IMG/VR virus record: IMGVR_UViG_3300020313_000003
Span: 1 to 40,931 of that record
Reading direction: 5' to 3' (one strand)
Length of the DNA: 40,931 nt
Source: a virus
Taxonomy: Duplodnaviria > Caudoviricetes
The translations under genes were made by a program, and so were the position numbers. Of this stretch, positions 9,001 to 40,898 are shown one piece after another (within the stretch, counting starts at the first letter, position 1; every line of letters begins with the position of its first letter). Below the pieces are notes generated by a model. The model saw nothing but the letters and a program-made list of their open reading frames with translations. It was not told where the DNA came from and ran no database searches.

Positions 9001-12000
9001 AAGAGCAGCCCTGGATGAGCAAATAGCCTGGGAGCGGCAATACTACTCAGAGCCTACGGCTGAAGAGATCCAGGAATTTTATGATGAACAGCGAGCAGAC
9101 GCCGCTTTCTATGAGCAAGGGCGGAGAAGGGAGCAGCTTGAAGCAGAGCTTGGGGGTTTAACCAGTTGGAAAGACAGCCAATTTTACGATGCGTTTATTG
9201 GCCCTGGCGCCAGCTATGTGCTGTCGAAAAACCGAGCCAAAACGCTAGGCAAATGGGATCCAAAGTATGGGCCACATGGCGAGTGGGACAGCCAGCCACA
9301 AGGCGTCAAAAGAATCAAGGGAGGGAAAACGGTAAAGGGTAAAAAGAAAGTAGCTCACGCGGCATCAGAGGTTCCACAGTATTACTTCAAAGACTTGTGG
9401 GCGCCAAAAGGCACTCCCGCCGATCAGCTTTATTTCCCGTCTGACCTGGGCCACCTGGCCTACAACCAGTCAGATCAACTAGGAAACCGCCAACCTATCG
9501 AAGGCACTACAAGCCCAGACGCCGCAGGATTTTGGGCAGCGTTTGTATATGCGGTCGATCAAGACCAAAGAAGGATTGAAATTGAAAACGAACTGGAAGA
9601 GATGGAACGGGAAGCCGGCCTGGAAAAGGTCTCTCCTACATTCTCTATTGCCCCGAAGGGGGCTGGCCTCGAGGAGATCCGCGCCAACGCCGATAAACAA
9701 GCAGAGCAAGAGCACCAGGAAAGAATCCTTCCGGAAACTCCGTTTGGCGACCAACCATACAACCGTGTAGCCGAATACTATGATATCGAAACCCACGACC
9801 CGGCGAGGCGTTCCTGGAGGCCGGCGGGTATAGGTTATGCGGGTTATCAGTATACTCGTCATGATTTTGCCGGACAAGCAATCGACCCAAATTCTGTTGG
9901 GGGCTATGCTTTCATGCCCAGGCGCCATGAGTATTTCGTGAAGCTCCAGGAGCAATTTGAGAAAGAAGCGCCGGTCAGGGATGATCGAGTTGCCCAAAAG
10001 ATTGGAGGCCAGTGGGTGTTTCCTCCTAATAAAATCACACACGAAGATTACGAGGAGTGGTTTCAGCAAAAGATAAGAGATGGAGAAGTGCCTATCCTAC
10101 GAACTGTTCCATTCAAGTTTACCTCCCTGGCCGACTCTCTCCAGGCTATGGGCGGCGTCATGACTCGAGCCGAAGCAAAAAGGGCCGGCCTGACCCAGGC
10201 ACAGCTTGACCGCGAATACGGCAACGTCATCCCGGTAGACCAGATCCCCCCTCACTTGCGGTCTATTATTTTCGGGGAAGCCCGGTTTGCGGAAAGCCTG
10301 GCAAGCGAAGCGACCGATAAGAGAGCCCTGGAAAGCAGAGGAACCTCCACGCGAGCTAAAACAAAACGCCTTCCAAGTGAAATTGCGGCGGAACTAAGCA
10401 ATCCCGAGTCACCGTTTTTTCCCAGGAACAAGGTCATCCCAGAGCTCCTGGGCCGCATAGAAAAAAACATGGCATACGTCTGGAAAGATAGAGGGGTTAA
10501 CCAGGAGCAGGAATTAGATATCCGCGCCAGGCGAGACAACAACACCCAGGACAAGCCCGAAACATACGACCCCATTTTTGAAAAAGCCGTTGACCAGTGG
10601 GGGGAGAAAACAGAGACGCCTGGGGCATACGAGTTCTGGGATGCGATTCGATACCGGATGCCGGAAGCGTTTATAGCGTTTCCCAGGTCGCCCAAAGCGC
10701 GACCAAAAGACAAAGGCGGCCCCAGGAGCGACTTCAGATACGAGCCGCTCTATGGCAAAACGTCACAAGCCCAGACTGAGCAGGGAGAGCTGACGTTCAG
10801 TATAGCGCCGTCCAGGATGACTCCAGGCGACAGCACCAGGGTAATCGTTACCCAGGAGCAAACCCTGGTAGGACCAGCAACCTTTGCCATCGCCGGTTAT
10901 CACGGGACGCGCCACAAAATCCCCAAGTTTGAAATGGACAAAGTGGGCCAAGGAATTGGCGCCCAGGTATGGGGATACGGCCTGTATTTTGGAGGAGCTC
11001 GAGACATTGGAGAAGACTACGCCCAGATGATGGCGAACCAGCATTCTCCCTACGCGGTGTCTTTTCGCAAAGGCCAGGAGATCCCTACCGTTCCTCCTTC
11101 TCCATTGCTTCCAGACAACACTTATGACGTTGGCCCCAACTGGTTTGTCAAAGACACCAGGACAGACGAACGGGTCACCGACTACATGACAGTCGATGAG
11201 GCTGACGAAGCCTTTGACCGCCTGAGCCTGGAGGCGATGAATCAATACAAGGTCGAGCTGGATGTGGAGCCTGAGCAGTTACTCTTTGCCGACACCCCGT
11301 TTTCTCAGCAGAGCGAGTTTGTCCAGGAGACCCTTCGCAAGATTATCCCGGCCTGGACCCGATTTCTTCCAGAAGGCCAAGGCATAGTAGTGGACGGCTC
11401 TACCTGGGAAGACCGCTCGCACGTTTACCCGTTTGACGACGAGCACGTTAAAACGCTGCTCCAACTCACTTACGACGAGGAGATGGACAGTTACAAAATG
11501 CCAGACGGGACGTATGTAAACATTACCCAATGGGCGCAAAGCAAAGGCATGATAGCCAGGAAGGTTTCCGAGGCTTTACTAAGCGCCGGCATCAAAGGGA
11601 TTGCCTACGAGGAAGGGACTGCTGCAAGAGCCCTGGACAGAGCAATGATGCGCCGGCGCAAATCAATGCGAAGCGGCCAGGGGCATCCTCTCTATGATCC
11701 AGGAGCCGCAGAAAGGTGGCAGGATCTCCCGGACGCCCAGAGCTACGTCATTTTTGATGAAAACGACATCAAGATCTTGGAGGAGAATGGCAAACCAATC
11801 GCCCTGGAAAACCACCAGGTGACGTATGCTGTAGCGCCCAGGCACACGCCACCGCCAGGAGCCGAGGTCAACCAGGTGGAGTTGAAGAAGAAAGGCAAGC
11901 CCACCAAGATCGGGCCGCTTCCGACCTGGACCGTTCCAAAAGACACCAAGCAGTCCCTGGGCAAAAAGATCCTGGCAGCAAACCACGCAAAAGACGGGAT

Positions 12001-15000
12001 CCCTGGCAAAGCCCTATTTGATCGGCTGGACTTAGCCAGGGAAATGGTGGCCGATGACCCTGGGCGCCTGGCCAGCCCAACCGGGTGGATGGAAACCATG
12101 CAAGCAGCCGGCGTGTGGGGAAACATCCTGGTCCCCCCAGGGCTGATGAAAACGATAGTAGAGCGCCCTGGGCAATACGTCGGGCTCCTCGAGGGGGGCT
12201 ATCACGAAAACCAGACAAAGCCTGGAGTTTACCAGGCAGCCAGGGACGGACTCAACTGGACCAAGAAGATGGGCCGGGAGCTTAACAAGACTGGCGCCGT
12301 CCCCGAATGGAATACGGTCCTGCACCATTTCTGGGGACTGCTATCCCGCCGAGCCACACCAGTCCAGCAGGAAGCCATGTGGCTCCGGATGCTTACGCAC
12401 CGGCCTATCCTGGACTCAATCCAGAGAAGCATCAACGGGACATTTTCCGCCTGGGCAGTAGAGCAATTCAAGACAAACAGAAAAGAGCTGCTAAAGAAAA
12501 CCAGGCAAATGCGAACCAATGACAAGGGAAAGGTTCGGCCCTTAGACGAAAGGGATGCCTGGATCGCCCTGGTAATTGACGCCAGGGAAGCCACGGCAGA
12601 TGGGTCAGCTTTACCAGGCGGCGCTCCTATGGGCAACAATGTCACCAGCAACGCCAATGACTTTTTTGCCATGCTTACATTCTGGGATGGCAGATGGGGC
12701 GAGGTTTCCGATGTCTACTGGACCAACGATTCTATAGAGATGGGGCGCCGGTTCCACTCCCTGGGCGATGATGCGGTAGGGATCCAGAACAAGGTTCAAA
12801 GGTTCGTTGGCCTTACTTACGGAATTCCTGGGCTGATCATGGACCGGTGGAAGTTTGTGGAATTCTGGCTGCCCGACCTGATGAAGGAAATGCGGGTGAG
12901 GAAGCCCAAGAACTTCTTCAAATATGGGAAGACCGAGGCGTCCAGGGCAACCCCTGAAGATCCTTCCAGCCTGTATGGGTTCTATTCTCTGATCGAAAGC
13001 CAAAGCCCGGTATTCTCCCTGGCGTTTTACGAGATGATGGAGACTGGCCTGGAGGTGGCCATCGACAACAGCCCCGAGCTCAAGAGATTCCTGGGGCCGA
13101 ATGCAAACGTGGGCGGCTTGCACTGGCACGGGTGGAACGCGATCAAGAACGAGGCAGTGGGGCACTCGAGCCTGGACCTTTCACTTGATCTTCTCAAGAA
13201 CTACGGGTTAAAGTCCAACGCTGCCGCCGTCGAGAAGACGATCAAGGCCGGCAACTACTACACCGAAACCCAGAAGGCAGATGGCACAGTCGAACGATTC
13301 ACAATCTCCAAGGGAGTCCCAAGCGCCACCCGTCAGGAGCGGGTTCCCGATGGACCCAGAGACCGAGCCCTGGGAAGACGCCGCGATGCAAAAGGCCCAG
13401 GACGCGGCAATAGAAAAGATCAGGAAACTTTCGCCATAGGCCCGGTCTTTGCCTCTGGCCTTTCCAAGGGGCCGACAGATATTCGAGAGGCGATCAAGCA
13501 AGGCAAGCCGGTAGGCATTGCAGCTACCTATGGTATCCCTCTTCCTGGCCCAGGAGGAGTAACTGAAACCGGGAAGCCGGCGTTTCAGCGAGAGCCGTCT
13601 GACACAATTAGGACTCTCCTCCGCGATTACCTGAACAAGGGCGGCCAGGTGTTTATTGATTCCGGCGCGTTTACCGACTTCCGAGCGGGACGCATGACTG
13701 ACTTTGTAGGAGTTTTCCAAACCTACGAACGCTTCTCCGAAGGGGTAGACCCTGGCAACCTGGAGAACCTCTATGTGGTGGCTCCCGATGTGATTGGGAA
13801 CCCAGGAGAAACAGAGCTGTTGCAAATGGACTTTATCAAAGAGTCTGCTGCGCTTGCCGACAAAGGCGCCCAAATCATTGTTCCTGTCCAAACAGGCCAG
13901 GGCTCCCTGGTTGAAACTGTCCTTCGCTCTTTTTCCTCTCTGCAAGAATATTGGCCATCAAAGGAATGGTGGAGCGCCCCTATTGTAGGGGTGGCATACG
14001 AGGAGAAATCCTGGGGCAAAGAAGAGGTTGTCGATTTTATCAAGGCTTATGAAGGGATCGGCGTTGACGAAGATACCCATGCTGACTTGCACGAAATTTT
14101 CAGCGCCCCTCCCACTATCCATCTCCTGGGCGGAGGCAGCGCAAAGGTCCAGGACATCGAGGACACGGTAGGAGGGACTGAAGTCACTATCCAGGGAGAC
14201 TCTCTATTCAAGGGAGCTTCCCGCCGTAAGAGCACCAGGGCCAAGCGCCCCGAGCAGGGCGAGCTCAGTTTCGCCATAGTCCCGGCGGAAATGGTAGAGG
14301 CCCACCGCCAGGCAGAAGCAAACATGGACGAAGAGGAAGGCCAGCGCCTGGTTGACGAGGCTGCTGCCATGTCCCCGTTCACAATGCCAGTCTGGCACGG
14401 GAGCGGAATGCACTCTTTTGAAGGCCCCCCGTCTCACCCAGGTGCGTCAAAACAACGGGGGGACGCCCCTTCCGGGTGGAATCTAAGCCCATCGGCCAAA
14501 GGAGAGTTTTCCGACGATAGGCGCTTTTTCCGAATGAGGCAAATGGAGACAGGTCGTGCAGGGGCCATCTACTTTACTATGGATCCTCGCCACCATGCTT
14601 TTTCCAGGGCTTTTGGGGATGTCCGCAAATACTTTATCAACCCAGGGAGAGTGGCCGATTTAACCAGGGAAACCAACTCCCCGGAATTCCAGCAACTGCT
14701 TGAAAACTACAACAAGCACTACGAAAAGGCCGGCTTTCAAATTGCACCTCGACCAGAGGAGAAAGGGTTCGTGGGTTACACCAAGGAAAACGCTCCCCCA
14801 AGTTGGGAACTGTTTGATGATCTCGAAGCTGGTGCCGCTGACTTTTTGATGAACGGAGACTATGATGCGTTTATCCTGGAAGAACGACTTGCTGGTAAAC
14901 TTCCGCCATCGCTATGGGAAAATAGAGGGATCACGGACACAATTAAGTCTATCGCCATCCTGGATCCCTCGAGGGTAAAATCCGGAGAGCCTTTTACCTA

Positions 15001-18000
15001 CGAGTGGGAACCAAACAACCCGATGGAGACAAAGACCCTGGTCCCCCTGGACGAGCGGTTTGATCCCAATATCCCTGACGTTTCCTACGCTATCAGCCCG
15101 GCGGAAGGGTTCGACCCTCTCCTCGAGGCGATCACCGACAAGATCAACGACTCCGCTGAAGGAGTAGTCGAGTTCCTGGAAAAGATCCGGGACCGGGTTG
15201 CAGAGATCAAAGCCCAATACGAAAGCGACCGGGCGTCCATTCTGGTGTCAGAGTCTTACGACGAAGGAGGAGCAGAGATTGATTTCGAGGGAGGAGTCAA
15301 AACTGGAGACCTGGACCTGCGAGCGGCCCTGGCTTACCTGGGCGCGATCCAGAAGGTGCTCCCCAGGGAGATCCAGGGATTTGTGGGCACGGCGCAAAGG
15401 CTGGCAGATTTCAAAACTATGGACGCAATGTCCAAGGAGCTTGCCAGGAGAATCCCCAGGATCGAAGCCGCATTAGAAAACTACCTGGCCAGGAGCCACC
15501 GAAAGTCGATCCGCAAGATCCTCAAGAAAGGTGCTGCAAAAGTAAGCAACTCGAGGAAGGCCACTGGTAAAATCGGGCCAGCCGGCCATGCGATTTTCAA
15601 GGAAGCCAGGCTGGCAATGAGATTGCAGCTCACAGAAGATGAGAAGCGAGCCGACCGGACCCTCCAGGAGAAAGGCGAAGAGATGGCCCAGAGTCTCCTG
15701 GACCAGATCGAAGACAATGACAGCCTGGACCTGGACGAAGTGGATGAGCTGGATGGCAGAGCCGCCGCCTGGTTGTTGTTCACGGACTTCCAGAATGCCA
15801 ACTCCGAGCGCCTACGCAAAGGGCTGGACTTGTTATCGGACACCTACAGCGAAGGCCGGGAGAAGTGGTTGCGAGTCCTGGGCGCCAGGAAGGCTCAACG
15901 AGAAGCCAGGCTCCAGGCCATCGAAAAGCTGATAAAAGACAAGACCAGGGCTGGACGCGCTGCTTCGATCAGGGCTGATGAACACGCTCTCAAACGGATC
16001 AGCGAAGGATTCATGTCCGCGTTTACTTCCGGATCACAGATGGTTCGGCGCCTGGGCGAGACGACCAACGATGAAGATATCAAGGCGATGCTGGAGGAAA
16101 TGGAGGAAGCCCTGGCAGCCGCTGAAGACCAGGAGACTGACCTGGACTACCAGGACAACGAAGCGTTTGCCGAGGCGCTTTACCGAATCCTGGGCGTGAA
16201 ATACGAGCACCAGTTATCTCGCAAAATCAAAAAGCATTCGACCGCGCCTGACAGCGAAGTTCCTGTGACCTCCCTCGAGGGAAGAAAGACCAGGAAGTAT
16301 TCTATTTCCAAGCTCGAGGCGGAGAGAATTGCCAACGGGGAAGCAACAGGATTTACCGGGAAAGGCGAATGGATAGAGCTGACCCTGGGGATGCGCCACG
16401 CAATCGAGGAAGCCTGGGAAAACTTTGAGGAACTGACCGAGGAAGAGCAATCCGGGAAGCGGGTGCTGAAATTTGAGGTAGTCGAAGCGACCGGCAGCAG
16501 AAAAAGCCTGGGCCTCCGGACTGATCTCGAGCTGCTAAACCTATGGCTAACCATGCGCCAGCCTGACCAGGCAGAGAAGTTGCATCGCCTGGGATATGAC
16601 CAAACAACCCAGAGAGAGCTCGAGGCTTATTTACCAGCAGAGGTGATCGCCCTGGGAGAATGGATGGCCGAATATCTGCGCCAGGACCAGGAGACTATTG
16701 ACCGATTGCACCGGGCGGAAAAAGGAATAGGCATGAACCTGGTCGAGAACTATTGGCCAGTCCGGAATGATGTTAGCGGCCAGGACTACGACGACCTGCA
16801 ACTGGACGGGAACCAGAAACAGTCTGGGCGCTCTGTCAGCTTCACTATGCAGCGGGTGACCAACAACGCGGAACCCGCTATCGCTGACGCCCTGGGAGTT
16901 TTCCTGGCTCACCGGTCTCAGGTGAATTTTTACAAAGCCCATGTTGCAACTCTTCGAGAGTGGGGCGGCCTGGTCAGACACGAAAGATTTTCCAACGCCG
17001 TCAGGCGCTCCCTGGGCGACACCTTCTACGGTGCCCTCTCTCACAGAATGGAGCGGATCCAAAACGGAGGGGTGATGAAAGCTGGCCGTGCCCTGCTCTT
17101 TGATCGCCTGGTAAAGGGACTGAAAAAGCGAACCTCCCTGGGGATCCTGGGCTGGCGCTTGTCCACTATCATGGTGAACTTTACCGCCGCTCTGAACTCC
17201 TTCCTGGAAATACCCGCCAGAGAGCTCCTAAAAGGGCTCCTGCTGGCTTCCAAGAGGCCGGGCGCATGGAAGGAAGCCTGGAACTCTCCAGGCATCCGGA
17301 GACGCCTGAGAGACGGCGCAACGTATGAAGCCCAGATTGCCAAGGCCAGGGGACCGCAACGCCGCCCAATCATTAGCCAACTCGAGAAGACCGCCGAAAA
17401 GGGAATCACTCCCATCAACTACGCTGATGTGGGCGCCAATATGCTAGGCGCAGTGGCCGTCTATGAATACACCAGGACAAAGTCCCTGGAAGCCGGCGCT
17501 ACAGAAGAACAAGCAAAACAGGAGGGAGAAAAGGCAGTGGACCGGCTCATGGCAAGAGCAGCTCAACCCGCCCAGCGTTTTACCAGGAGTGAGATGGAAC
17601 ACCGAGCCCTGGAGAACCCATTGGCCGCCTTGTTTGCTTTGTTTGTATCGGAGCCCAGAAAGAACCTTTCCGTGGCCATCCTATCCGCCAGGCAACTTGC
17701 CACCGGCAAAGGGATCTACGATTCCAAGGCAATGGCGGCCCAGGCATTTGCCACATCATCCTTTTTCCTACTCGCCCTGGAGCACATAATCCGACTGTCC
17801 TACCAGGCAGTCTTCAGAGCAGATGAGGACGATGAAGAAAAAGTCCTGGACCGCGTGATAGAAAAGCTGACTGACGGCAAAGCCTGGGCGCATCGCCTTG
17901 CTGCAAATCATGCAGCGGGGATCCCTATTTATGGGCCGGCTTACGAATGGGTAGTGGGCAGTTTGGTCAACTCATCTGCCATTCCTGGGGAGGACGTTTA

Positions 18001-18514
18001 CCAGTTTACCAATACGGAAAACCCCGCTGTTCGAGCAGTCGAAAAGCTAGGGCGCGGAACCAAAAAATTTATCGACGCCCAGGACGAAGACAGCAAAGAA
18101 GAATCCCTGGATGCTACGATAGATATGATCCAGGCCGGGGGCAACCTGATCCCTGGTGGGCCGCTGTTTGCCCAGCTTGCCAATGTCGGGGAAGCCACCC
18201 TGGGCTTTACCAGCTCCAATCTCACGGACGAAGGACGCCGTGCCAGGTTCAAAGGACGATTCAACAAATACAAAAAATCCCTGACAGAACTCCTGGGGCC
18301 GACGACCAACAAGGAAACAGGGGAAACCGACAAGGACATCCAGCAGCAAAAATGGGACGCCCAGACAGCTTACCTGCTCGAGGCCCTGGCTCCCCTGGAA
18401 ACTGACCAGATCATCGAGCTCACCCAGGAACTGTCTATTTCCAAGGCCGTGCGGGAGGAGATCGAGTTCGGGCTTCTAAATGGCCTGGATACAACTACAA
18501 TAGAAGACGAGTGA
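6005..18514 (+). CDS. Giant internal virion / polyvalent protein (4169 aa) with degenerate zincin, two ADP-ribosyltransferase-like, HhH-like and TGT/DpdA-like domains
   Basis: Occupies the gp16 position before the tail fibre; motifs YHGT..GYGLYF, WHGS..AIYFT, FIDSGAF..PDVIG..IHLLG, GIQNKVQRF..IMDRW; repeated linker motif. Confidence 0.8.
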   Translation: MSSPFMMAQAAAGQEEEEEASWAPKRTGLPGLLLGDDREFAEELKKRGLLEDYQGLLGLFGGSPALGDDPLWLKKKYQEKAAFQEISPNLPTEVAAAGYAAMNNLDADDLSGRIAALTKEAQKLDTEDKIFSKALTDASLAFLAGSPQDVEKIKELQGRATTEFEKPFATRGWKYGRERAAGYFTGEIPARARQAVGLLRLAMGETTENLPWDIPEEAKGLDDVMEDLASWAINQSEDDLNKWQQAVKMLAESELVGAVEPGFWGRANQILNQPLAKSASAIGAANVQFQSKIAEGLELMTGDLVKKLPGWATSESLQKGADWWSFRQRMWNFLDQDIAPWVDMEEAGIVKKGLYAAYESAPFFAMAALGGPMGLASGGMMEAGMVDLELRQRYGDDIDPAARNAIALGTGAINAALERWAWKGTAWAGRSAGKNLINPVYQALRAKNMRAALTRAGVKGVAARATRGFGALAGATAIEFAEESVQDLTSAALSEVANVVVPDLMPEHSWREHIKEWNNHHGVRLFAVLPYAILGAGGRAYVQRSNIDELRGMLSDTEGLRESGVFTSEEELKEFAEEAKSDPVVAADNFQERYEEGTGETRNANRDNLTNSQARAQAEETGEIIVNQQATEGYQVIIPGQESIHANTIVEAQEVAALAQLAKDAGTLSKLPDLIKQHQEAKVAKEPDDLETATNRVEAERTEAIEEQAEAEKARRPMTVVDVLTGEERIAKPNEVTEERKKAWEAEHGLPFVGDVAILGATEIGLAPGPNLPHVRGGKAGVAHAVIKLYRGASPVTFTEEQAEGFLRVSLKNGDIELEDARQRLAALGRDLGMDFALDTTEGVIESFSELAVAYVSGSLTPEDLQRLPGKFANWLRKFAEFLANSLRMVRGLREYREMGELDSTLEGWVREAVGLNPLQAMEETVEEQVEQLEEDSAAQETPFQGYTLDEIIIPDDVREAIAEMAQAADERFMASDEIIMAQSEEEAQAFAASAYDMERAALDEQIAWERQYYSEPTAEEIQEFYDEQRADAAFYEQGRRREQLEAELGGLTSWKDSQFYDAFIGPGASYVLSKNRAKTLGKWDPKYGPHGEWDSQPQGVKRIKGGKTVKGKKKVAHAASEVPQYYFKDLWAPKGTPADQLYFPSDLGHLAYNQSDQLGNRQPIEGTTSPDAAGFWAAFVYAVDQDQRRIEIENELEEMEREAGLEKVSPTFSIAPKGAGLEEIRANADKQAEQEHQERILPETPFGDQPYNRVAEYYDIETHDPARRSWRPAGIGYAGYQYTRHDFAGQAIDPNSVGGYAFMPRRHEYFVKLQEQFEKEAPVRDDRVAQKIGGQWVFPPNKITHEDYEEWFQQKIRDGEVPILRTVPFKFTSLADSLQAMGGVMTRAEAKRAGLTQAQLDREYGNVIPVDQIPPHLRSIIFGEARFAESLASEATDKRALESRGTSTRAKTKRLPSEIAAELSNPESPFFPRNKVIPELLGRIEKNMAYVWKDRGVNQEQELDIRARRDNNTQDKPETYDPIFEKAVDQWGEKTETPGAYEFWDAIRYRMPEAFIAFPRSPKARPKDKGGPRSDFRYEPLYGKTSQAQTEQGELTFSIAPSRMTPGDSTRVIVTQEQTLVGPATFAIAGYHGTRHKIPKFEMDKVGQGIGAQVWGYGLYFGGARDIGEDYAQMMANQHSPYAVSFRKGQEIPTVPPSPLLPDNTYDVGPNWFVKDTRTDERVTDYMTVDEADEAFDRLSLEAMNQYKVELDVEPEQLLFADTPFSQQSEFVQETLRKIIPAWTRFLPEGQGIVVDGSTWEDRSHVYPFDDEHVKTLLQLTYDEEMDSYKMPDGTYVNITQWAQSKGMIARKVSEALLSAGIKGIAYEEGTAARALDRAMMRRRKSMRSGQGHPLYDPGAAERWQDLPDAQSYVIFDENDIKILEENGKPIALENHQVTYAVAPRHTPPPGAEVNQVELKKKGKPTKIGPLPTWTVPKDTKQSLGKKILAANHAKDGIPGKALFDRLDLAREMVADDPGRLASPTGWMETMQAAGVWGNILVPPGLMKTIVERPGQYVGLLEGGYHENQTKPGVYQAARDGLNWTKKMGRELNKTGAVPEWNTVLHHFWGLLSRRATPVQQEAMWLRMLTHRPILDSIQRSINGTFSAWAVEQFKTNRKELLKKTRQMRTNDKGKVRPLDERDAWIALVIDAREATADGSALPGGAPMGNNVTSNANDFFAMLTFWDGRWGEVSDVYWTNDSIEMGRRFHSLGDDAVGIQNKVQRFVGLTYGIPGLIMDRWKFVEFWLPDLMKEMRVRKPKNFFKYGKTEASRATPEDPSSLYGFYSLIESQSPVFSLAFYEMMETGLEVAIDNSPELKRFLGPNANVGGLHWHGWNAIKNEAVGHSSLDLSLDLLKNYGLKSNAAAVEKTIKAGNYYTETQKADGTVERFTISKGVPSATRQERVPDGPRDRALGRRRDAKGPGRGNRKDQETFAIGPVFASGLSKGPTDIREAIKQGKPVGIAATYGIPLPGPGGVTETGKPAFQREPSDTIRTLLRDYLNKGGQVFIDSGAFTDFRAGRMTDFVGVFQTYERFSEGVDPGNLENLYVVAPDVIGNPGETELLQMDFIKESAALADKGAQIIVPVQTGQGSLVETVLRSFSSLQEYWPSKEWWSAPIVGVAYEEKSWGKEEVVDFIKAYEGIGVDEDTHADLHEIFSAPPTIHLLGGGSAKVQDIEDTVGGTEVTIQGDSLFKGASRRKSTRAKRPEQGELSFAIVPAEMVEAHRQAEANMDEEEGQRLVDEAAAMSPFTMPVWHGSGMHSFEGPPSHPGASKQRGDAPSGWNLSPSAKGEFSDDRRFFRMRQMETGRAGAIYFTMDPRHHAFSRAFGDVRKYFINPGRVADLTRETNSPEFQQLLENYNKHYEKAGFQIAPRPEEKGFVGYTKENAPPSWELFDDLEAGAADFLMNGDYDAFILEERLAGKLPPSLWENRGITDTIKSIAILDPSRVKSGEPFTYEWEPNNPMETKTLVPLDERFDPNIPDVSYAISPAEGFDPLLEAITDKINDSAEGVVEFLEKIRDRVAEIKAQYESDRASILVSESYDEGGAEIDFEGGVKTGDLDLRAALAYLGAIQKVLPREIQGFVGTAQRLADFKTMDAMSKELARRIPRIEAALENYLARSHRKSIRKILKKGAAKVSNSRKATGKIGPAGHAIFKEARLAMRLQLTEDEKRADRTLQEKGEEMAQSLLDQIEDNDSLDLDEVDELDGRAAAWLLFTDFQNANSERLRKGLDLLSDTYSEGREKWLRVLGARKAQREARLQAIEKLIKDKTRAGRAASIRADEHALKRISEGFMSAFTSGSQMVRRLGETTNDEDIKAMLEEMEEALAAAEDQETDLDYQDNEAFAEALYRILGVKYEHQLSRKIKKHSTAPDSEVPVTSLEGRKTRKYSISKLEAERIANGEATGFTGKGEWIELTLGMRHAIEEAWENFEELTEEEQSGKRVLKFEVVEATGSRKSLGLRTDLELLNLWLTMRQPDQAEKLHRLGYDQTTQRELEAYLPAEVIALGEWMAEYLRQDQETIDRLHRAEKGIGMNLVENYWPVRNDVSGQDYDDLQLDGNQKQSGRSVSFTMQRVTNNAEPAIADALGVFLAHRSQVNFYKAHVATLREWGGLVRHERFSNAVRRSLGDTFYGALSHRMERIQNGGVMKAGRALLFDRLVKGLKKRTSLGILGWRLSTIMVNFTAALNSFLEIPARELLKGLLLASKRPGAWKEAWNSPGIRRRLRDGATYEAQIAKARGPQRRPIISQLEKTAEKGITPINYADVGANMLGAVAVYEYTRTKSLEAGATEEQAKQEGEKAVDRLMARAAQPAQRFTRSEMEHRALENPLAALFALFVSEPRKNLSVAILSARQLATGKGIYDSKAMAAQAFATSSFFLLALEHIIRLSYQAVFRADEDDEEKVLDRVIEKLTDGKAWAHRLAANHAAGIPIYGPAYEWVVGSLVNSSAIPGEDVYQFTNTENPAVRAVEKLGRGTKKFIDAQDEDSKEESLDATIDMIQAGGNLIPGGPLFAQLANVGEATLGFTSSNLTDEGRRARFKGRFNKYKKSLTELLGPTTNKETGETDKDIQQQKWDAQTAYLLEALAPLETDQIIELTQELSISKAVREEIEFGLLNGLDTTTIEDE

Positions 18515-31300: not shown

Positions 31301-32016
31301 AGCGGGTGATGATCGACCCTGGGCACGGGGGAAGAGACCCAGGCGCCGTGGGGCCAGGGGGGCTCGAGGAAAAATCAGTAGCCCTGGATGTGGCCCAGGC
31401 CCTGTGGGCAAAGATGGTCAAGCACCCTGGCCTGATGCCCAAGCTGACCCGAGACGGGGATGACTATGTAAGCCTGGGAGACCGGGCAGCAGCCTCGAAC
31501 GCATACAAGGCGGACCTGTTCATTTCGATCCACTGCAATGCAAGCGAGAGCCATTTGGGGACCGGATACGAGGTGTGGACAAGTCCTGGGAATACCTCAA
31601 GCGATAGGGCTGCCACCCTGGCGTTTAACCGCTACCAGGCAGCCTTCCCCCACCGCCAGGCCAGGGTCAGCCTGGGTGACGGTGACCCGGACAAGGAGGC
31701 CAGGTTCACGGTTCTCATGAAGACCAGGGGGCCGGCGCTCCTCTTCGAGCTCGAATTCATCGACAATTCAGAGGGGGAAGAGTTCCTGGCCCTTACAAAT
31801 CCAGGGGTATTGGCAGAGCCTCTTTACCAGGGCGCCCTTGATTTCTTCGACCTGGTAGACCCGGTGGAGGAAGGAGAAAAGGAAAAGATCGAAGCCAGCG
31901 TCAATCTGCTGGAAATCCTGGAAATGCTCCAGATGGCGGCCAGCGGCCTGAAATCGGCCTCGCAGCACCTGGACGCCGCCAGGGCGGAGCTGTCAAAAGC
32001 CTGGAGAAATCTGTGA
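31297..32016 (+). CDS. N-acetylmuramoyl-L-alanine amidase (Amidase_3), putative endolysin
   Basis: 'IDPGHGG.DPGAVG', 'EK', 'FISIHCNA', 'LFELEFIDN'. Confidence 0.92.
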   Translation: MKRVMIDPGHGGRDPGAVGPGGLEEKSVALDVAQALWAKMVKHPGLMPKLTRDGDDYVSLGDRAAASNAYKADLFISIHCNASESHLGTGYEVWTSPGNTSSDRAATLAFNRYQAAFPHRQARVSLGDGDPDKEARFTVLMKTRGPALLFELEFIDNSEGEEFLALTNPGVLAEPLYQGALDFFDLVDPVEEGEKEKIEASVNLLEILEMLQMAASGLKSASQHLDAARAELSKAWRNL

Positions 32017-32372
32017 AAGTTGTGCCCAAACAGGTCTCCGTCGCCGGCGTGACCATAAAAGTAGTGCGTCGAGACCTCACGGACATCGAGTGCTACGGGC
32101 AATATGACGACGACAAGAAGCGGATAACGCTATGCACGACGCTTCGAGGGGCCAAATTGTGGGGAACCTTCCGGCATGAACTGCTCCACGCGGCCCTGGC
32201 GGCCTCTGGGGTAGCGTATGGACTCCCCGAGGGCGTCGAAGAGGTATTGGTTCGGGGGCTTGAGAACATCTTCTTTCCCTGCTATGAAAGGCACTTGACC
32301 AGGAAGGTGCGTCAGCAGCTCGCGGTCGAATCACAACCCCCAAAGCATGGATCCGATCTTCACCCTGACTAG
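32013..32372 (+). CDS. Small zincin-like metallopeptidase
   Basis: 'YGQYD.....ITL ... TFRHELLHA ... EE.LV' (HExxH plus downstream Glu). Confidence 0.7.
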   Translation: MKVVPKQVSVAGVTIKVVRRDLTDIECYGQYDDDKKRITLCTTLRGAKLWGTFRHELLHAALAASGVAYGLPEGVEEVLVRGLENIFFPCYERHLTRKVRQQLAVESQPPKHGSDLHPD

Positions 32373-33261
32373 GCGCAACAAAGTCCCGATCATAACATTC
32401 CCCAAGCCAGTCGGAGTCGGCGGGAAAGTTCGGATCCTCCTTCAGTTTGACGAGCATTGGGATAACCCGCACTCTGATCAGGCCATGATCGAGCGCCAAA
32501 TGAAAGACGCTCACAGCCAGGGCCTTCCGATATTTAAGGGAGGCGATACTTTCTGCGCCATGCAGGGCCGTTATGATCGTCGTCGAGCCAGGACCGATAT
32601 CAGGCCAGAGCACGATACACCCTACTACCTGGACGCCCTGGTCAACGGATACGCCAAGTTTGCCTCGCCCTATGCATCGTCCATTGCCTGTATGGGCCGG
32701 GGGAACCATGAACTGTCTATCCTTAAGAACTGCGAAACAGACCTGATCGAAAGGACCGCCGAGCAGCTCCGCCAGGCTGGCGGAAACATCGAGGTCATGG
32801 GAATAGGAGGTTGGCTCATGGTCCAGGTCTACGTCACAAAGACGGTGAAACTGCTATACCGGATCGCCTACCACCACGGACACGGCGGCGGCGGGATAAT
32901 CACAAAGGGAGTCATCCAGGCATCCAGGCGAGCCATGATCTACCCTGACGCCAATGCGGTAATCACCGGGCACGTTCATGAAAACTGGAGGGTCAGTTTC
33001 TGCCGGGACCGATGCACTCCGACTGGCCGGATTTACCAGGACGAGCAAATCCACATATGCAGCCCGACCTACAAGAATGAATACGACCCCTCGAGCAGTG
33101 GCTGGCACAACTTGCGCGGCGGTCCTCCAAAGCCCCTGGGAGGAACTTGGCTAGAGCTGACCACCGCCAGGCTATATGACGGCATGACCAGGAAGAACGC
33201 GACCGACAAGAGCCAGACACCGCTTTACCATCTCATCGCTGATGCTACCCAGGCGAAATGA
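32347..33261 (+). CDS. Calcineurin-like metallophosphoesterase
   Basis: DEH, GGD, GNHE, HHGHG and GHVH motifs in order. Confidence 0.88.
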   Translation: MDPIFTLTRRNKVPIITFPKPVGVGGKVRILLQFDEHWDNPHSDQAMIERQMKDAHSQGLPIFKGGDTFCAMQGRYDRRRARTDIRPEHDTPYYLDALVNGYAKFASPYASSIACMGRGNHELSILKNCETDLIERTAEQLRQAGGNIEVMGIGGWLMVQVYVTKTVKLLYRIAYHHGHGGGGIITKGVIQASRRAMIYPDANAVITGHVHENWRVSFCRDRCTPTGRIYQDEQIHICSPTYKNEYDPSSSGWHNLRGGPPKPLGGTWLELTTARLYDGMTRKNATDKSQTPLYHLIADATQAK

Positions 33262-34975: not shown

Positions 34976-35188
34976 ATGAGATTCCTTCAGAACAAAGTGC
35001 GACTGGCCGGCATTTTCCGGACATTTTCAGCCAAGGCTCCCAAGCCACCCAAGGCAGTCCCGGTTGCCAGGAGAAGTGCAGCCGACACCGCGCAAAGCGC
35101 AGCAGCTCAAAGAAGGCGCCCCAGGGGAATGTCCTATGGCGGCACCCTGGTAGCAGGTGACGAAGGGCGCAAATCTCTGCTAGGCTAA
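34976..35188 (+). CDS. Small basic virion protein preceding portal (gp7.3-like), with IFRT leader
   Basis: 'FSAKAPKPP' start after the leader, C-terminal 'KSLLG', coupled to the portal start. Confidence 0.75.
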   Translation: MRFLQNKVRLAGIFRTFSAKAPKPPKAVPVARRSAADTAQSAAAQRRRPRGMSYGGTLVAGDEGRKSLLG

Positions 35189-36864
35189 TGGCGACAAAGA
35201 CCGCTACGGAACGGGCAGTTAGTCTGCTCAAGTTGTGGACGCACATGAAAGATGTGCGGCGTCCGGTGGAGGAGTGGTGGCAGCTCATTGGAGAGCTTGT
35301 CATCCCCAGGAAAAGCTATGTGGGTGAAAGCGATGATGCCCCAGACGCTTCCAGGTTCCGCCGGCTTTACGACACAACAGCGGTAGATGCGTGTGCTACA
35401 GCGGCCAATGGCCATGTCAGCTACATCACGCCAAGCGGCGACCGGTGGTTCTCCTGGGCGGCGCCAGACCATGTCCGATCTGATGAGGTAGACGGGTGGT
35501 ATCGCCGGTGCTCACTCATCGCGGCCAAGGAATTGGCAGCCGGCAACTTCTACACCAACATCCACGAAACATACGAGGACCGGGTAGCGTTCGGCATTGG
35601 CTCCATATCGGTGTGGCCAGGCAAGCGCAACAGTCTGATGTTCCGGAGCCATGAGATTTCGTCCTATGCGATAGGCGAAAACGACGAAGGATACGTTGAC
35701 AAGTGGGGCTGCGAATACGACTGGCCGATATCCAGGATTGTTCAGATGTTCGGGGAAGACGCCGTCGAGGGGAAGATGGCGGAGTCCTGGCACAAATACA
35801 AAAACGAGCACGGCCCTGACACAAAGCACAAGTTCATCCACATTATCAGGCCAAACTACAAGGCAGAGCCTGGCAAAATCGGCACCAAGAATATGCCGTT
35901 CGAGTCGGCCTATGTAGCCCTGGACGGTCCCTACGTTCTATTTGAAACCGGACTGATCGAGTTCCCGGTGTGCTGTTCCCGCTACCTCAAGCACAACGGA
36001 TCCACCGGAGTCTACGGGTTCGGCCCGGCCTGGAGAGCGTTGCCAACCATTTCGCAGCTCAACTTCAACGAGAAGCTGCTGGACCTGGTCGCAGAGAAAT
36101 CTGCTGTTCCGCCTGTCCTGATCCCTGACTACCTGGAAGGAGATGTGGACATGAGAGCCGGCGGCGTGACGACCTTTGCGGCCAATCGCGCCAAGGGGCC
36201 ACACGCAATTCCCCAGGAGTGGCTGACCGGAGGCCGATACGATGTGGGAGTAGACCGGAGCGACCGCAAGCGGGAAGACATCAACAAGGCATTCCATGTG
36301 GACCTGTTCCGTATGTTTGCCGAGCTCGAGAAGAGATCCCAGATGTCCGTGCTCGAGGTCAGCGAAAGAACCTCCGAAAAGCTCATCAACTTCTCCCCGA
36401 CATTTACCAGGTTCACCGCCGACTTCCAGGTGTGCATGAACCGGGTTTTCCGGATCCTGCTTCGCCAGGGGAAGTTCCCGCCACCGCCACCAGGAGCCCT
36501 GGTCCCCGACCAGTTCACCGGCGTCCTGGACGTAGAGAACCCCGAGGTGCTTTACCAGTCCAAGGTAGCCCTGGCGCTACAGTCTCTCCAGAATACCGGC
36601 ATCGACCGGACCATGCAACGCGCCCTGGATTGGGCCACCGCCCTGGGCGACCCGTCTTCCGTAGCGGAGGAGATCAACCTGGGCCGAGCATTGCACACCG
36701 CTGGAAGAAACGAGGGAGTGCCCGAGGATATATTCAATACGCCTGAAGAGAAACAGGCGATCCTCGAGCAGAAACAAGCCCAGGAACAGGCGATGATGGC
36801 GGCTGAACTGGCGAAAAGTCTTCCCAACCAGGGCCAAGCGCCTGGCGGGATGCCTATTGAATGA
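35188..36864 (+). CDS. Portal (head-to-tail connector) protein
   Basis: 'LYDTTA..A....A.G..S..TP....WF', 'YGFGPA..ALP', 'MSVLEV.ER..EK', Gln-rich C-terminus. Confidence 0.93.
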   Translation: MATKTATERAVSLLKLWTHMKDVRRPVEEWWQLIGELVIPRKSYVGESDDAPDASRFRRLYDTTAVDACATAANGHVSYITPSGDRWFSWAAPDHVRSDEVDGWYRRCSLIAAKELAAGNFYTNIHETYEDRVAFGIGSISVWPGKRNSLMFRSHEISSYAIGENDEGYVDKWGCEYDWPISRIVQMFGEDAVEGKMAESWHKYKNEHGPDTKHKFIHIIRPNYKAEPGKIGTKNMPFESAYVALDGPYVLFETGLIEFPVCCSRYLKHNGSTGVYGFGPAWRALPTISQLNFNEKLLDLVAEKSAVPPVLIPDYLEGDVDMRAGGVTTFAANRAKGPHAIPQEWLTGGRYDVGVDRSDRKREDINKAFHVDLFRMFAELEKRSQMSVLEVSERTSEKLINFSPTFTRFTADFQVCMNRVFRILLRQGKFPPPPPGALVPDQFTGVLDVENPEVLYQSKVALALQSLQNTGIDRTMQRALDWATALGDPSSVAEEINLGRALHTAGRNEGVPEDIFNTPEEKQAILEQKQAQEQAMMAAELAKSLPNQGQAPGGMPIE

Positions 36865-37121
36865 GCGCGGACTACGAGGAATTTGCAGTAGCAGCAGACC
36901 GGGTGCTGAGAACATCAGCCGGCAAAGCCTTCCTGGAGGGCCTCGAGAGAGTCTGCGAATACCATTCCCAGGCATTTCAGCCCAAGGATGACTTCAACCC
37001 ATACGCCGCTGCGACCAGGGACGGCGCCAGGGCGGTCATCATCGAGGCCAGGACAGCAGCCGCCAGGGGATCCGAAATCAGGAAACGAGGACCACAACCC
37101 AAGAAAACCAATGATTCATGA
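36861..37121 (+). CDS. Small head-module protein (Bbp19-like)
   Basis: 'T.AGK.FL..LE', 'A.RDGAR.VI..'; immediately after portal. Confidence 0.65.
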   Translation: MSADYEEFAVAADRVLRTSAGKAFLEGLERVCEYHSQAFQPKDDFNPYAAATRDGARAVIIEARTAAARGSEIRKRGPQPKKTNDS

Positions 37122-37200
37122 CTGGCACCTATGGGTCACAGCAGCCCTACTATGGATCGTTTGCTTGTTGATTAGTTTGTGCCAGCACGGCATTCTTTAA
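37111..37200 (+). CDS. Possible 29-aa membrane peptide
   Basis: MIHDWHLWVTAALLWIVCLLISLCQHGIL fills the gap between genes. Confidence 0.4.
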   Translation: MIHDWHLWVTAALLWIVCLLISLCQHGIL

Positions 37201-37203
37201 TCA

Positions 37204-37605
37204 ATGACGCAACACCAAGAGACAATGGCCAAGCTGGATCAGCTCCTGAAAAAGGTGGAAGCCCTGGAGGAGCTATCAAAGCCAAACCCTGCTTTGCTTC
37301 CGGAACGCGGCCTGAATGACCGCCCCGCAATCCCGCCTGGCATGATTCCTTTCGAGGTGATGGAGGCCGCCGACCCCGCCCTGGGACCAGACAGCGAAAA
37401 CGTCATTGCCTACGCCAGGGAGAACTTCTCCCCAGAGGATTTCGAGACATTTTTCCCACACGCCACCTCTGCCCCTTCGCCAGTCCAGGTTGCCGAGTCT
37501 CCTGGAGAGGCGCCGTCAGCAGACGAAATTGCCAGCGCCCTGGAAGAGGAGGCAGAAGCAGAGGCGAGCCTGGACGAGGAGAAAGCACAAGCAGCCCTGG
37601 GATAA
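37204..37605 (+). CDS. Hypothetical acidic protein
   Basis: 133-aa ORF in the head module. Confidence 0.65.
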   Translation: MTQHQETMAKLDQLLKKVEALEELSKPNPALLPERGLNDRPAIPPGMIPFEVMEAADPALGPDSENVIAYARENFSPEDFETFFPHATSAPSPVQVAESPGEAPSADEIASALEEEAEAEASLDEEKAQAALG

Positions 37606-37609
37606 CGAT

Positions 37610-37684
37610 ATGGCCAAGAAACCAAAGAAAAAAGGAACCACCACCCGGCCTAAGCCCAGGCCAGCGGTGAAGACATCGTATTGA
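37610..37684 (+). CDS. Possible 24-aa basic peptide
   Basis: MAKKPKKKGTTTRPKPRPAVKTSY exactly fills the gap between neighbours. Confidence 0.45.
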   Translation: MAKKPKKKGTTTRPKPRPAVKTSY

Positions 37685-37685
37685 T

Positions 37686-37868
37686 ATGAAGTCAAAACTA
37701 GCAGCAGCAATCGCGCTCCTGGCTTTGCCAGCTTGCACGACCGTGGAGATGACCTCTCCTGATGGAACGGTGACCAAAACCACCAGCATCGACAACCAGA
37801 CCGCCCAGACCGTGGCGGGAGCAGTGACCGCCCTGGCGGCCAGCCGCGCAATTAACCAGGACAAGTAG
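37686..37868 (+). CDS. Small lipoprotein
   Basis: Signal peptide MKSKLAAAIALLA plus lipobox LPA-C. Confidence 0.75.
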   Translation: MKSKLAAAIALLALPACTTVEMTSPDGTVTKTTSIDNQTAQTVAGAVTALAASRAINQDK

Positions 37869-37869
37869 C

Positions 37870-38772
37870 ATGGAGGGAGAAGCAGTAGACGCCGGCGGCC
37901 AGGAGGCGCCAGCACCAGAAGCAGCAGCAGCTCCAGGAGTTTTCCAGGAGGGGCCAGGCTATATGTTCTCAGATAATTGGGAAGGCCAGGCCCTGGGATC
38001 CGAGCACGATCCAACCGCCGACCCGCTTCCATTCAAGAACCTGGGAGAAATGGCCAAGGGATACCGCTCTTTGCGAGCCAGTTTCCACCAGGCCGGGAAG
38101 GTCGAGGGATACCCGACTGACGGCAACCAGGAGAGCCTGGCAGCCTGGAACAAAGCAGTCGGCCTCGAGGGAGTTGACGAGCCCACATATGCTGGCGCCG
38201 CGACCCCAGAAAACCTGCCTGAGAACATGGCAGTCCTGACAGAGTTCCTGCCAGCGTTGATGAATCGCGGAGTGCCAGCGGCCCAGGCCAAAGGCATCAT
38301 CGAAGACTTCATCAACTTTGACCAGGGCCTGGCAGAAAGGACGACCGCCGATTACCAGGTGCAGCTCCAGCGGGATGACGCCAAGCTCCGGGGATTCCTG
38401 GGGGGAGGCCAACAGGCCCAGGAAAGCATTGACACCCTCAAGCAGCTCGCCGCGTCGTTTATCGACATACGGACAGGAAACGCCGTGGATCCAGGGGATG
38501 GTCAAATCTTCGACAACCCGGTCATCGTGGGCATCCTGGCCCAGGTGAAAGACGCCCTGAGTGAAGACCAACTGGCAGCCCGGATGGGCGTCACTTTACC
38601 AGGGGCCACCGAGACTCCCAACCAGGAGGCCAACCGGATCATGGAGGAGGCCAACTCTCTCCGATATAACAAGGACGTTCCCAATGCTCACCCGATGTCC
38701 CAACGCTATGCCGATGGAGACCCGGACGCTATGGAGTTCGTAAATCAAAAGCTCCGGAGGAGTGGCGTCTAA
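37870..38772 (+). CDS. Capsid assembly scaffolding protein
   Basis: Acidic and helical, 'FKNLGEMAKGY', C-terminal 'HP....Y' typical of podovirus scaffolds; upstream of capsid. Confidence 0.75.
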   Translation: MEGEAVDAGGQEAPAPEAAAAPGVFQEGPGYMFSDNWEGQALGSEHDPTADPLPFKNLGEMAKGYRSLRASFHQAGKVEGYPTDGNQESLAAWNKAVGLEGVDEPTYAGAATPENLPENMAVLTEFLPALMNRGVPAAQAKGIIEDFINFDQGLAERTTADYQVQLQRDDAKLRGFLGGGQQAQESIDTLKQLAASFIDIRTGNAVDPGDGQIFDNPVIVGILAQVKDALSEDQLAARMGVTLPGATETPNQEANRIMEEANSLRYNKDVPNAHPMSQRYADGDPDAMEFVNQKLRRSGV

Positions 38773-39019
38773 AAAGATATTCATCCGGTCCCTGGTCGGA
38801 TGGTGGACTGGCACCGGCTGGTCCAGGACGATTGACGAGGCCCAGGCCCAGGCAACGATGCTCGAGGCCAAAACAAAAGCCTGGAAGATGCGCCTGGCGG
38901 GGGAGCGGGTGAGGGTCTTCGAGTTAGCCAGGAAGGAGGTTCCCCTGGAGGACAAACAGGTTCTCCTGGGAGATGACTCAGTCCGGACCAGGGATTCGCG
39001 CTTGCCTAAACCAGGCTGA
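38762..39019 (+). CDS. Hypothetical protein
   Basis: 85-aa GTG-start ORF overlapping the scaffold end. Confidence 0.45.
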   Translation: MASKKIFIRSLVGWWTGTGWSRTIDEAQAQATMLEAKTKAWKMRLAGERVRVFELARKEVPLEDKQVLLGDDSVRTRDSRLPKPG

Positions 39020-39120
39020 TAGTGCCAGACTTCCCCTGGCTTCGATTTCAGCACAGCAGCGGCTGACTTCATGACATGGCTTACAGAGCCTGGTCCATTG
39101 AATTGGGCCAGGCTTTTGTA

Positions 39121-39149
39121 TTTACAGGCGCCCCAGGCGGTGCTATACC
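39121..39149 (+). promoter_or_regulatory. Possible capsid promoter
   Basis: TTTACA-17 nt-TATACC with TG extension in the 300-bp intergenic region. Confidence 0.4.
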
Positions 39150-39318
39150 TGGCGCCGTCAAGTGGAAGAACAACCCCCCTGGGGCCTTCCGGACACTCCA
39201 TACCCGACCTGGAACCGCTGGGGAATAACCGCAAGGCCCCCAAATAGGTGGAGAACCGGAACAATCGGAAAGCCTGGTGCCCTGCACCACCCCGACAATT
39301 ATTCAATTCCCCAAAACA

Positions 39319-40326
39319 ATGAAATTCCTTCAGCATTTGCTGGGATTCGTTAAGGGACCACGCCTGGCAGGTATTTTCCGGACGGCGGTCTCAGCTAACG
39401 AGGTTCCCGGCCACTACACTACTCAGTTCGACAAGAACTGGACGTTGGAAGCGCAGCAGCACATCGCTCGTCTGCGTGAGTGCTCTACCGTCAAGACCGG
39501 TTGCACCGGCAAGGCGGAGACACATAACCGCATCAGCAAAGAAGAGATGGAAGACCAGACCTCTCGCCTGGCCAAGACTCAGGGAACTGAGCTTACCACG
39601 ACGAAAAGGTGGGTTTTCCCTCGCGCTGCCCAGAAGACTACCTTCCTGGACGAGTGGGATGCTCACCTCCTTGGTGAGACTGTCCTGCCTACCGGTGAGG
39701 CCGTCCAGGCACACGCCGCCGCCGCTGGTCGCAAAATGGATCGCCGCCTCCTGGACGCCATCGAAGGCGCAAACTTCGAGGGCCTCGAGGAGAGCCTGAC
39801 CACCAGGGCAGCCCCCACTGAGACTGTTGCTATCACGTTTGACAACGCTGGTGGCGGCACCAAGTTGGGCTTTACCCTCAAAAAGTGGATCAAGGCCAAA
39901 GGCCGCTTTGCCAAGAATGAGGTCTACGGCCAGGAGCAGAAAATGTCGGGCGATGCGCTCTACGTTGCCCTGGGGCAGGACCAGCTTGACGACCTCCTTT
40001 TTGGAGAACAGGCACGGCTTGCCAGCAGCGACTTCAACCGTCTCCAGGCTCTGGTTGACGGCGAGGTGGACTACTACCTGGGATGCAAGGTGAAGCGGAC
40101 TGAGCTCCTCACAGAGTATGATGCCGCCGGTGGAGACACCGGGGTCCAGGTTCTGTTCTGGGTCAAGTCCATGATCAAGTTCGACATTTGGTCTGAGATG
40201 ACAACCAGGATGAGCGTTCGCGCTGATCTTTCCGATGCCATCCAGATTCGCTCGAAGCTGATGTGTGGCGGAACCAGGGTGCAGGACAATGCTGCTCTCA
40301 TTTGCAACGTCAAGAAGCCTTCCTAA
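39319..40326 (+). CDS. Major capsid protein (HK97 fold, podovirus type), with IFRT leader
   Basis: 'HYTTQF..NW...AQQ..ARLR', 'AAAGRKMD..LL.A', 'SSDFN..QALVDGEV..YLG.K'; ATG 39319. Confidence 0.9.
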   Translation: MKFLQHLLGFVKGPRLAGIFRTAVSANEVPGHYTTQFDKNWTLEAQQHIARLRECSTVKTGCTGKAETHNRISKEEMEDQTSRLAKTQGTELTTTKRWVFPRAAQKTTFLDEWDAHLLGETVLPTGEAVQAHAAAAGRKMDRRLLDAIEGANFEGLEESLTTRAAPTETVAITFDNAGGGTKLGFTLKKWIKAKGRFAKNEVYGQEQKMSGDALYVALGQDQLDDLLFGEQARLASSDFNRLQALVDGEVDYYLGCKVKRTELLTEYDAAGGDTGVQVLFWVKSMIKFDIWSEMTTRMSVRADLSDAIQIRSKLMCGGTRVQDNAALICNVKKPS

Positions 40327-40355
40327 CCTCAAAAAGAAAGGAAATCACAAGCAAT

Positions 40356-40898
40356 ATGAAAGCTCTTCACAGAATCCTGAGCCTCCTGGCTCCAGTCGTC
40401 AGCGTCCCGAAGCACATCTTCCGGACGGCAACAACCTACGGGACCAAGTCAAGTGGTCGAAACGATGCGCTCCAGAAAGCCGGGCTCCGCGAGTCGGACC
40501 CTGGCCAGGAGCTGTCCTACTTCTACGACATTACCGCCAGCGCCTTGCCGGCAACTTCGATGTTGTGGAAGTTCGGCCCGTTCCCTGGTGGAACCTCCCC
40601 GATCCTGTCCACGCTTCGCATTGTTGGCGATGCCACAACGGACCTGGGGCAGGAAATCGACGTTGGCTATGCCTTTGTCAACTCCACCGATGGCACCGAT
40701 GACCCGGATGCCTTCATCGACGGGGTAGACGGATCCGCTGGCCAGATTGACGTTAATGGCCTGGCCGTGGTTGGCCCGAATGTCACTGCGACTCCCACGA
40801 TTGATAAGCCTTACTGGATCACCATCACCACCAAAAACGCCACCGGCGTTGCGGCGGGAACGGTGGCCCTGGAAGTCTTTGTGCGCCAGAAGAACTAG
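40356..40898 (+). CDS. Capsid-associated (decoration/cement-like) protein, with IFRT leader
   Basis: GAAAGGA upstream; beta-rich 'IDVGY......DDPDAFIDG.D' ; directly after capsid. Confidence 0.7.
   Translation: MKALHRILSLLAPVVSVPKHIFRTATTYGTKSSGRNDALQKAGLRESDPGQELSYFYDITASALPATSMLWKFGPFPGGTSPILSTLRIVGDATTDLGQEIDVGYAFVNSTDGTDDPDAFIDGVDGSAGQIDVNGLAVVGPNVTATPTIDKPYWITITTKNATGVAAGTVALEVFVRQKN

Follow-up and report, generated by a model that had tools for sequence, protein, structure and literature searches.

The DNA analysed here, IMG/VR virus record IMGVR_UViG_3300020313_000003 (Duplodnaviria; Caudoviricetes), is taken as a whole as the window; it is circular and 40,931 bases long, and its terminal repeat measures 55 bases. 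Its late operon encodes terminase, a PF12236 portal, a scaffold-like protein, a PF19821 capsid of the HK97 fold, tail tube proteins and internal virion proteins, and portal, scaffold and capsid follow one another in the order expected of a podovirus (head module PF12236/PF19821). Three proteins of the head module, the pre-portal, major capsid and post-capsid proteins, share an N-terminal leader ending in IFRT, which is real and under selection and in all likelihood translated. The genes and leaders of this module are as follows.

34976..35023, plus strand: leader of the pre-portal protein, 16 residues, ending in RLAGIFRT; six positional homologues start with MG[FAM] about where IFRT ends
34976..35188, plus strand: pre-portal protein, 70 amino acids, small and basic, directly before the portal; 23-40% identity to the six positional homologues
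35188..36864, plus strand: portal (head-tail connector), without leader; PF12236, E 5e-95
37870..38772, plus strand: putative scaffold, without leader, assigned from position and homology; phrog_3742, E 9e-9
39319..39384, plus strand: leader of the major capsid protein, 22 residues, ending in RLAGIFRT; the PF19821 match begins at residue 29
39319..40326, plus strand: major capsid protein, 335 amino acids, HK97 fold; PF19821, E 2e-46
40356..40427, plus strand: leader of the post-capsid protein, 24 residues, ending in IFRT; defined by an alignment of seven sequences and a leaderless homologue (L005)
40356..40898, plus strand: post-capsid protein, 180 amino acids, likely a jelly-roll cement/decoration protein; low-confidence model (predicted local distance difference test, pLDDT, 43)

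Foldseek matched the capsid model to podovirus capsids (best E 9e-13). The pre-portal protein had no match in Pfam, PHROG or NCBIfam, and a search for homologues gave none at E 10. From its model, the post-capsid protein can probably be classed as a jelly-roll cement: it aligned with the KHP40 cement protein (7dou; Z 8.2, root mean square deviation 4.3, 114 aligned) and with the capsid chain 8h89_J of Ralstonia phage GP4 (Z 7.1), scores that were tied with those of unrelated beta-sandwiches, and a Foldseek search with this model returned nothing below E 0.001.

The IFRT leader

RLAGIFRT lies at 35000-35023 in the pre-portal gene and at 39361-39384 in the capsid gene, and IFRT at 40416-40427 in the post-capsid gene, as an earlier note made from the letters of this DNA had read them. 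IFRT occurs exactly three times in the six-frame translation of the window, each time within the first 24 residues of one of these proteins, and not once in the 11,865 residues of protein bodies (three short open reading frames, ORFs, being read out of frame). Each leader is 16-24 amino acids long with four Lys/Arg and no Asp/Glu, and the first eleven residues gave the three top helical hydrophobic moments among the 31 plus-strand ORFs, the third tied with the ORF at 32347. Alignment confirmed that the segments are true extensions over the homologues in all three proteins and that the residues after IFRT align with the normal N-termini of these families, as the note had supposed. The Met of the capsid homologues aligns at about Ala23, ahead of the PF19821 match, and within the set of 209 capsid homologues the motif is confined to P0001 and P0002 (a third sequence begins with a 23-residue stretch that lacks it); likewise, at 34 capsid loci from host-group genomes, compared by eye and including three partial matches, the leader was present only in the copy of this phage. 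The Met of the pre-portal homologues falls at about Arg15 in a manual register, and the leaderless L005 homologue of the post-capsid protein is 26 amino acids shorter (37% over 120 amino acids, E 2e-12). The motif Thr and the Met of the homologues lie about one residue apart at most, and the alignments place the junction between leader and body to about one residue. A true start downstream of IFRT is disfavoured: there is no in-frame ATG, GTG or TTG from IFRT to residue 52, 43 or 64 of the three proteins, and a canonical downstream start therefore cannot skip the leader before the conserved cores are reached. In several database calls of the capsid gene the upstream GTG at 39277 was chosen instead (349 amino acids).

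The two RLAGIFRT copies differ at four bases, all third-position and silent, an outcome that four random substitutions gave in 0.65% of 100,000 trials. The P0002 capsid (91% identical) keeps RLAGIFRT, while the stretch preceding it is changed and has gained one residue in frame. Both observations uphold the suggestion that selection acts on the peptide rather than on the DNA. Across the seven post-capsid sequences 16 of 24 leader columns and 94 of 156 body columns were invariant; the leader is thus no less conserved than the protein body. A DNA motif was considered and rejected. All three motifs have the core ATY TTC CGG ACR, and TTCCGG is the commonest Phe-Arg coding in the window (7/17). There are 9 occurrences of TTCCGGAC and 36 of TCCGGA, but the divergence between the copies, being silent only, points to the peptide instead.

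Chance was assessed with the N-terminal 30 residues of each of 39 ORFs against 20,000 pooled shuffles, with random windows from protein bodies as a second null. An 8-mer common to two N-termini was never obtained in the 20,000 shuffles and arose in 0.7% of 20,000 body-window trials. Some 4-mer common to three N-termini arose in 1,229 of the 20,000 shuffles, so that the third copy, the post-capsid IFRT, is not significant by its 4-mer alone. The argument for this copy would instead come from its position and from the invariance of IFRTA in 7/7 aligned cement sequences of 72-99% identity, one further member of the cluster having IFRTT. Beyond the window, a degenerate RLAGIFRT scan of IMG/VR returned 13 stretches, six of them close copies of this phage and seven not N-terminal in comparable proteins, and a metagenome scan for the motif recovered at least one locus, 98% identical. 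Contig comparisons revealed no difference in either IFRT among the matches listed, and an RNA run was without cover of the capsid leader, so that these comparisons are silent on expression.

One explanation for the shared motif is that a short piece of DNA was duplicated recently and is functionless. Its restriction to one narrow clade, in which most copies are 97-100% identical, would fit this, as would the 6% of shuffles with a three-way 4-mer. However, four of the six fourfold-degenerate sites differ between the copies with the peptide unchanged, and the motif has been kept in cement homologues of 72-86% identity and in the 91% identical capsid, which makes neutral duplication very improbable. 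A second explanation is that a translation-initiation cassette was copied to raise the output of genes that need de novo initiation, IFRT being a remnant. The pre-portal and capsid genes do agree in 14 of their first 15 bases, an intergenic gap precedes all three genes, and the Thr codon is ACG in two of them, one base from ATG and near the homologues' Met. Against this, the divergence within RLAGIFRT is silent only, folding at these starts is not weaker than at the starts of other genes, and conservation of the leader at the protein level matches that of the body; we consider a cassette of this kind improbable.

Scaffold leaders of related podoviruses

The earlier note overlooked the scaffold, which has a leader in nine relatives and none here. 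In these nine distinct IMG/VR relatives a short basic-hydrophobic scaffold leader stands before an acidic, Gly-rich linker, with capsids that are leaderless where in view, and the scaffold of Enterobacter phage Tyrion (Uetakevirus, KX231829.1) has a similar start. The leaders are 9-12 residues long in the nine relatives and 9-14 with Tyrion included, and are found on the scaffold only. They often end in hydrophobic-hydrophobic-Arg-x, and five of the nine relatives have Arg two residues before the acidic linker, the junctions being placed by eye. The scaffold of the window starts where the scaffold peptide of the relatives ends. On a capsid tree of 22 rows the scaffold leader is present in eight, with three changes needed, and in L005, the row nearest to the window, scaffold, capsid and cement are all leaderless. 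Like the IFRT leaders, the scaffold leaders are short basic-hydrophobic peptides before the family N-terminus, but they are restricted to the scaffold, and a profile test did not recover the same motif; an unguided alignment matched them to the first half of the window's leaders. On these comparisons, common descent of the two kinds of leader is plausible and their homology only suggestive. A literature search, with subscription papers and supplements outside it, yielded no processing data for the scaffold leaders and no description of them, of the IFRT motif or of TldD/E acting on phage proteins, and the accessible part of PMC9144972 has nothing on leaders. We note that an 85-amino-acid ORF between scaffold and capsid (38762-39019), whose start holds IFIRS, ranked second with a scaffold-leader profile of width 4 and is possibly a weak fourth leader. 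GenBank labels the scaffold-position genes of two podoviruses (L093:6261-6953 and L094:8024-8749) 'putative peptidase' or 'protease'; the scaffold of the window matched no peptidase family.

It is conceivable that the leader works uncut, or is cut only incidentally, as a tag that replaces the scaffold leader and whose amphipathic helix takes the head proteins to a membrane, to a chaperone or to one another. The hydrophobic moments, which are the highest in the late operon, would be in keeping with such a role, as would the absence of a scaffold leader here when it is present in eight of the 22 rows of the capsid tree. There is also a precedent, since the N-terminus of the 80alpha scaffold is needed for assembly and its cleavage is not (accessible part of PMC5744158). 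Yet what the three genes conserve most strictly is the distal end beside the mature domain, as would be expected of a cut site, and the first half of the leader differs among the three proteins. We regard an uncut tag as a rather unlikely alternative, though one to be taken seriously.

Likely host and the Prp route

The host is likely, but not certainly, a verrucomicrobium (order Verrucomicrobiales), because both capsid-family matches and the phage single-stranded DNA-binding protein (SSB) favour that order over Phycisphaerae: the capsid family matched in 58/401 Verrucomicrobiales genomes versus 4/301 Phycisphaerae genomes (one of the four being a 98% copy of the phage), and the best SSB scores were 126 bits in Verrucomicrobiales, 101 in Phycisphaerae with the 98% copy left aside, and 76 against the other SSB of the metagenome-assembled genome (MAG) that holds this copy. 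All 16 sequencing runs with at least half of the sampled words were labelled as marine or marine plankton metagenomes. The copy itself (L052, G001:C18) is a 31.8-kb contig, 98% identical to the phage and binned in a Phycisphaerae MAG; it is possibly mis-binned, as capsid and SSB point to Verrucomicrobiales. A separate observation is that Verrucomicrobiales genomes of about 2-3.5 Mb (L099-L111, L114 and L117-L123) contain a PF19821-type capsid gene on its own, often not followed by a cement gene. Several of these are surrounded by genes that look like host genes and occupy similar positions in several genomes, for example G035:C1:1727605-1728510, and they are possibly domesticated capsid or nanocompartment genes.

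The earlier note had taken Staphylococcus phage 80alpha as the model for leader removal. There, host Prp cuts the leaders of capsid and scaffold for a purpose that is still open, and the leader motif is also recorded on proteins without homology to these in further phages, a tail protein among them (PMC5744158, accessible part). The present case is alike in that a short N-terminal extension is shared by non-homologous virion proteins and its removal would give a normal N-terminus. It differs in several respects. Prp cuts F|A, whereas in each of the three motifs here the residues after Phe are Arg-Thr; the leader is on capsid, cement-like and pre-portal proteins and not on the scaffold; and the phage is a podovirus of a probable Gram-negative host, with cleavage that is predicted only. 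Moreover, Prp (PF04327) was found in none of 151 Verrucomicrobiales genomes and not in the Phycisphaerae MAG (G001), with 3/14 controls positive, and L27 has Met directly before its conserved start, with no extension, at 30/30 loci examined (of 39 genomes matched) and in G001. As neither Prp nor the L27 extension was found among the likely hosts, the 80alpha system does not apply here, and the Prp route is not open in that group; the leader is akin to that of 80alpha but falls outside that family by its defining tests. The capsid targeting sequence of T4 is another N-terminal tag shared by unrelated virion proteins, in that case internal cargo, and is removed by the prohead protease gp21. The T4 system needs a phage prohead protease, of which none was detected here, and one of the tagged proteins here looks like an external cement.

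Candidate proteases

A second enzyme named in the earlier note is the phage's own HExxH protein, encoded upstream of the head module.

32013..32372, plus strand: mini zinc peptidase-like protein, 119 amino acids, HELLH plus conserved Glu77; phrog_1233, E 2e-9; M78/SprT-like clusters

In this lineage the peptidase might have taken on the task of cutting the IFRT leaders. Its HExxH...E site is intact, with H55, E56, H59 and E77 invariant in 18 sequences, and no other peptidase family was found in Pfam, PHROG and NCBIfam scans of the submitted ORFs. The gene was not found in 5/5 related records with leaderless capsids, in keeping with such a role. It was also not found in G003, whose scaffold has a leader, which speaks against it. 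No GenBank phage match and no solved relative of the protein was obtained, and in host-order genomes it was present in 1/201, on a phage-like contig. However, the gene is widespread among marine phages (132 relatives, of which the best 80 were compared). An N-terminal [IL]FR[TS] was seen at 0/77 non-self loci, an amidase relative being present at 27/77, and two lineages of podoviruses of the same family pair the gene with leaderless head proteins, namely L196, L197, L203, L204, L207 and L239, which form one close lineage, and L209. Thus the catalytic site proposed in the note stands, but presence of the gene does not track leaders across relatives. The mini HExxH gene is followed by a metallophosphoesterase-like gene (32013-33261) in unrelated marine phages as well (L192, L193, L209 and L228), a relative of 32347-33261 being present at 4/77 HExxH loci.

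The HExxH protein was also modelled in complex with capsid residues 1-40, alongside three controls, two of them partner controls that were natural proteins of 61-62 residues. The pass mark is reached by 116/157 solved complexes and 2/215 mismatched pairs, counts that hold only roughly here. The complex passed, with 0.68 versus 0.01 for the best control; contacts agreed by at least 98% between runs, and partner pLDDT was at least 72. Leader residues 16, 19-20 and 23-24 make contact, but it is capsid residues 31-37, also present in leaderless relatives, that run along the edge strand beside E56/H59, and the IFRT junction is not in the cleft. With residues 31-37 there, the model is therefore no better evidence for leader cleavage than for a generic peptide-binding pose, and the controls leave room for such a pose. 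We regard recruitment of the phage peptidase as unlikely.

Removal by a protease, counting host enzymes and the phage HExxH protein together, is in our judgement the most likely fate of the leader and a somewhat probable one. Of the possible cutters we favour, tentatively, a host peptidase that would cut near Arg-Thr; a host enzyme is favoured by G003, in which a scaffold leader occurs without a detectable HExxH gene, and has a precedent in the capsid and scaffold of 80alpha. We propose that the leader on the pre-portal, capsid and cement-like proteins would be removable, leaving the ordinary N-terminus of each family. It may have arisen once and been copied onto three genes, perhaps from the scaffold leader of related phages, and its amphipathic first helix could engage a chaperone, the membrane or a protease exosite. 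The cut would follow Thr (one residue earlier for the pre-portal protein), which would put Arg at P2. The leading candidate is a host M16 metallopeptidase similar to mitochondrial processing peptidase (MPP), because the leader has features of MPP substrates and M16 genes occur throughout the likely host order (61/61 Verrucomicrobiales genomes). TldD/E, a further candidate for leader processing, is represented by TldD in 6/61 of them.

MPP (M16B) presequences are 15-60 amino acids long, basic, free of acidic residues and able to form an amphiphilic helix, with Arg at P2 (accessible parts of PMC12731061 and PMC4585086). The IFRT leaders resemble them in each of these respects if the cut follows Thr. 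Unlike MPP substrates, they belong to phage structural proteins in a bacterium, with no import step, and the likeness may be convergent, since presequence-like signals arise readily de novo (PMC4585086, accessible part). That a bacterial MPP-like (M16) peptidase removes presequence-like leaders with Arg at P2, and that the leader is a portable tag that has moved between scaffold, capsid, cement and pre-portal proteins, is a specific proposal that we hold to be quite doubtful.

A number of observations weigh against removal by a host enzyme. Cleavage in this phage is a prediction from sequence, and the host too is a deduction, with a 98% copy of the phage sitting in a Phycisphaerae MAG. The complex model passed with the phage's own peptidase. 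M16 is near universal, being present in 9/14 controls, and because the family is so widespread its occurrence in 61/61 genomes is weak evidence; prokaryotic M16B enzymes, whose substrates are poorly defined, have been suggested to degrade peptides and not to process them (PMC12731061, accessible part). A search for the motif in host proteins, which the earlier note had recommended, came to nothing: the leader profile performed at chance level on 121 host-order genomes (best E 0.016), and at none of the 30 loci fetched did any ORF begin with the motif at or close to its N-terminus. Finally, with a profile built from the nine scaffold leaders, IFRT ranked no higher than the top 1-8% of background, and the width-4 version preferred the opening residues of the leaders on the pre-portal and capsid proteins. 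Since IFRT does not stand out in this profile, what is argued from G003 may relate to a different signal.

If a host M16 peptidase does remove the leader, head maturation driven by the host would have a second route, independent of Prp and operating in Gram-negative hosts, and bacterial M16 enzymes would gain a natural presequence-type substrate. Phage maturation would then be tied to the enzyme family that includes the mitochondrial presequence peptidase, and attention would be drawn to the short scaffold leaders of many podoviruses as an overlooked class. The phage offers one tag on three unrelated proteins, contrasting relatives and two named candidate enzymes.

Other features of the phage

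A 4,169-amino-acid ORF (6005-18514) occupies the position of an internal virion protein and had no match in Pfam, PHROG or NCBIfam. About 300 bases without a clear gene (39019-39319) precede the capsid start, and the capsid genes of relatives have upstream gaps of comparable length; this is possibly a regulatory RNA element. The cement-like gene (40356-40898) is more variable than the adjacent capsid gene, with alleles of 72-86% identity to P0064-P0066 and L001 in near-identical genomes, which suggests allele exchange at a surface protein.

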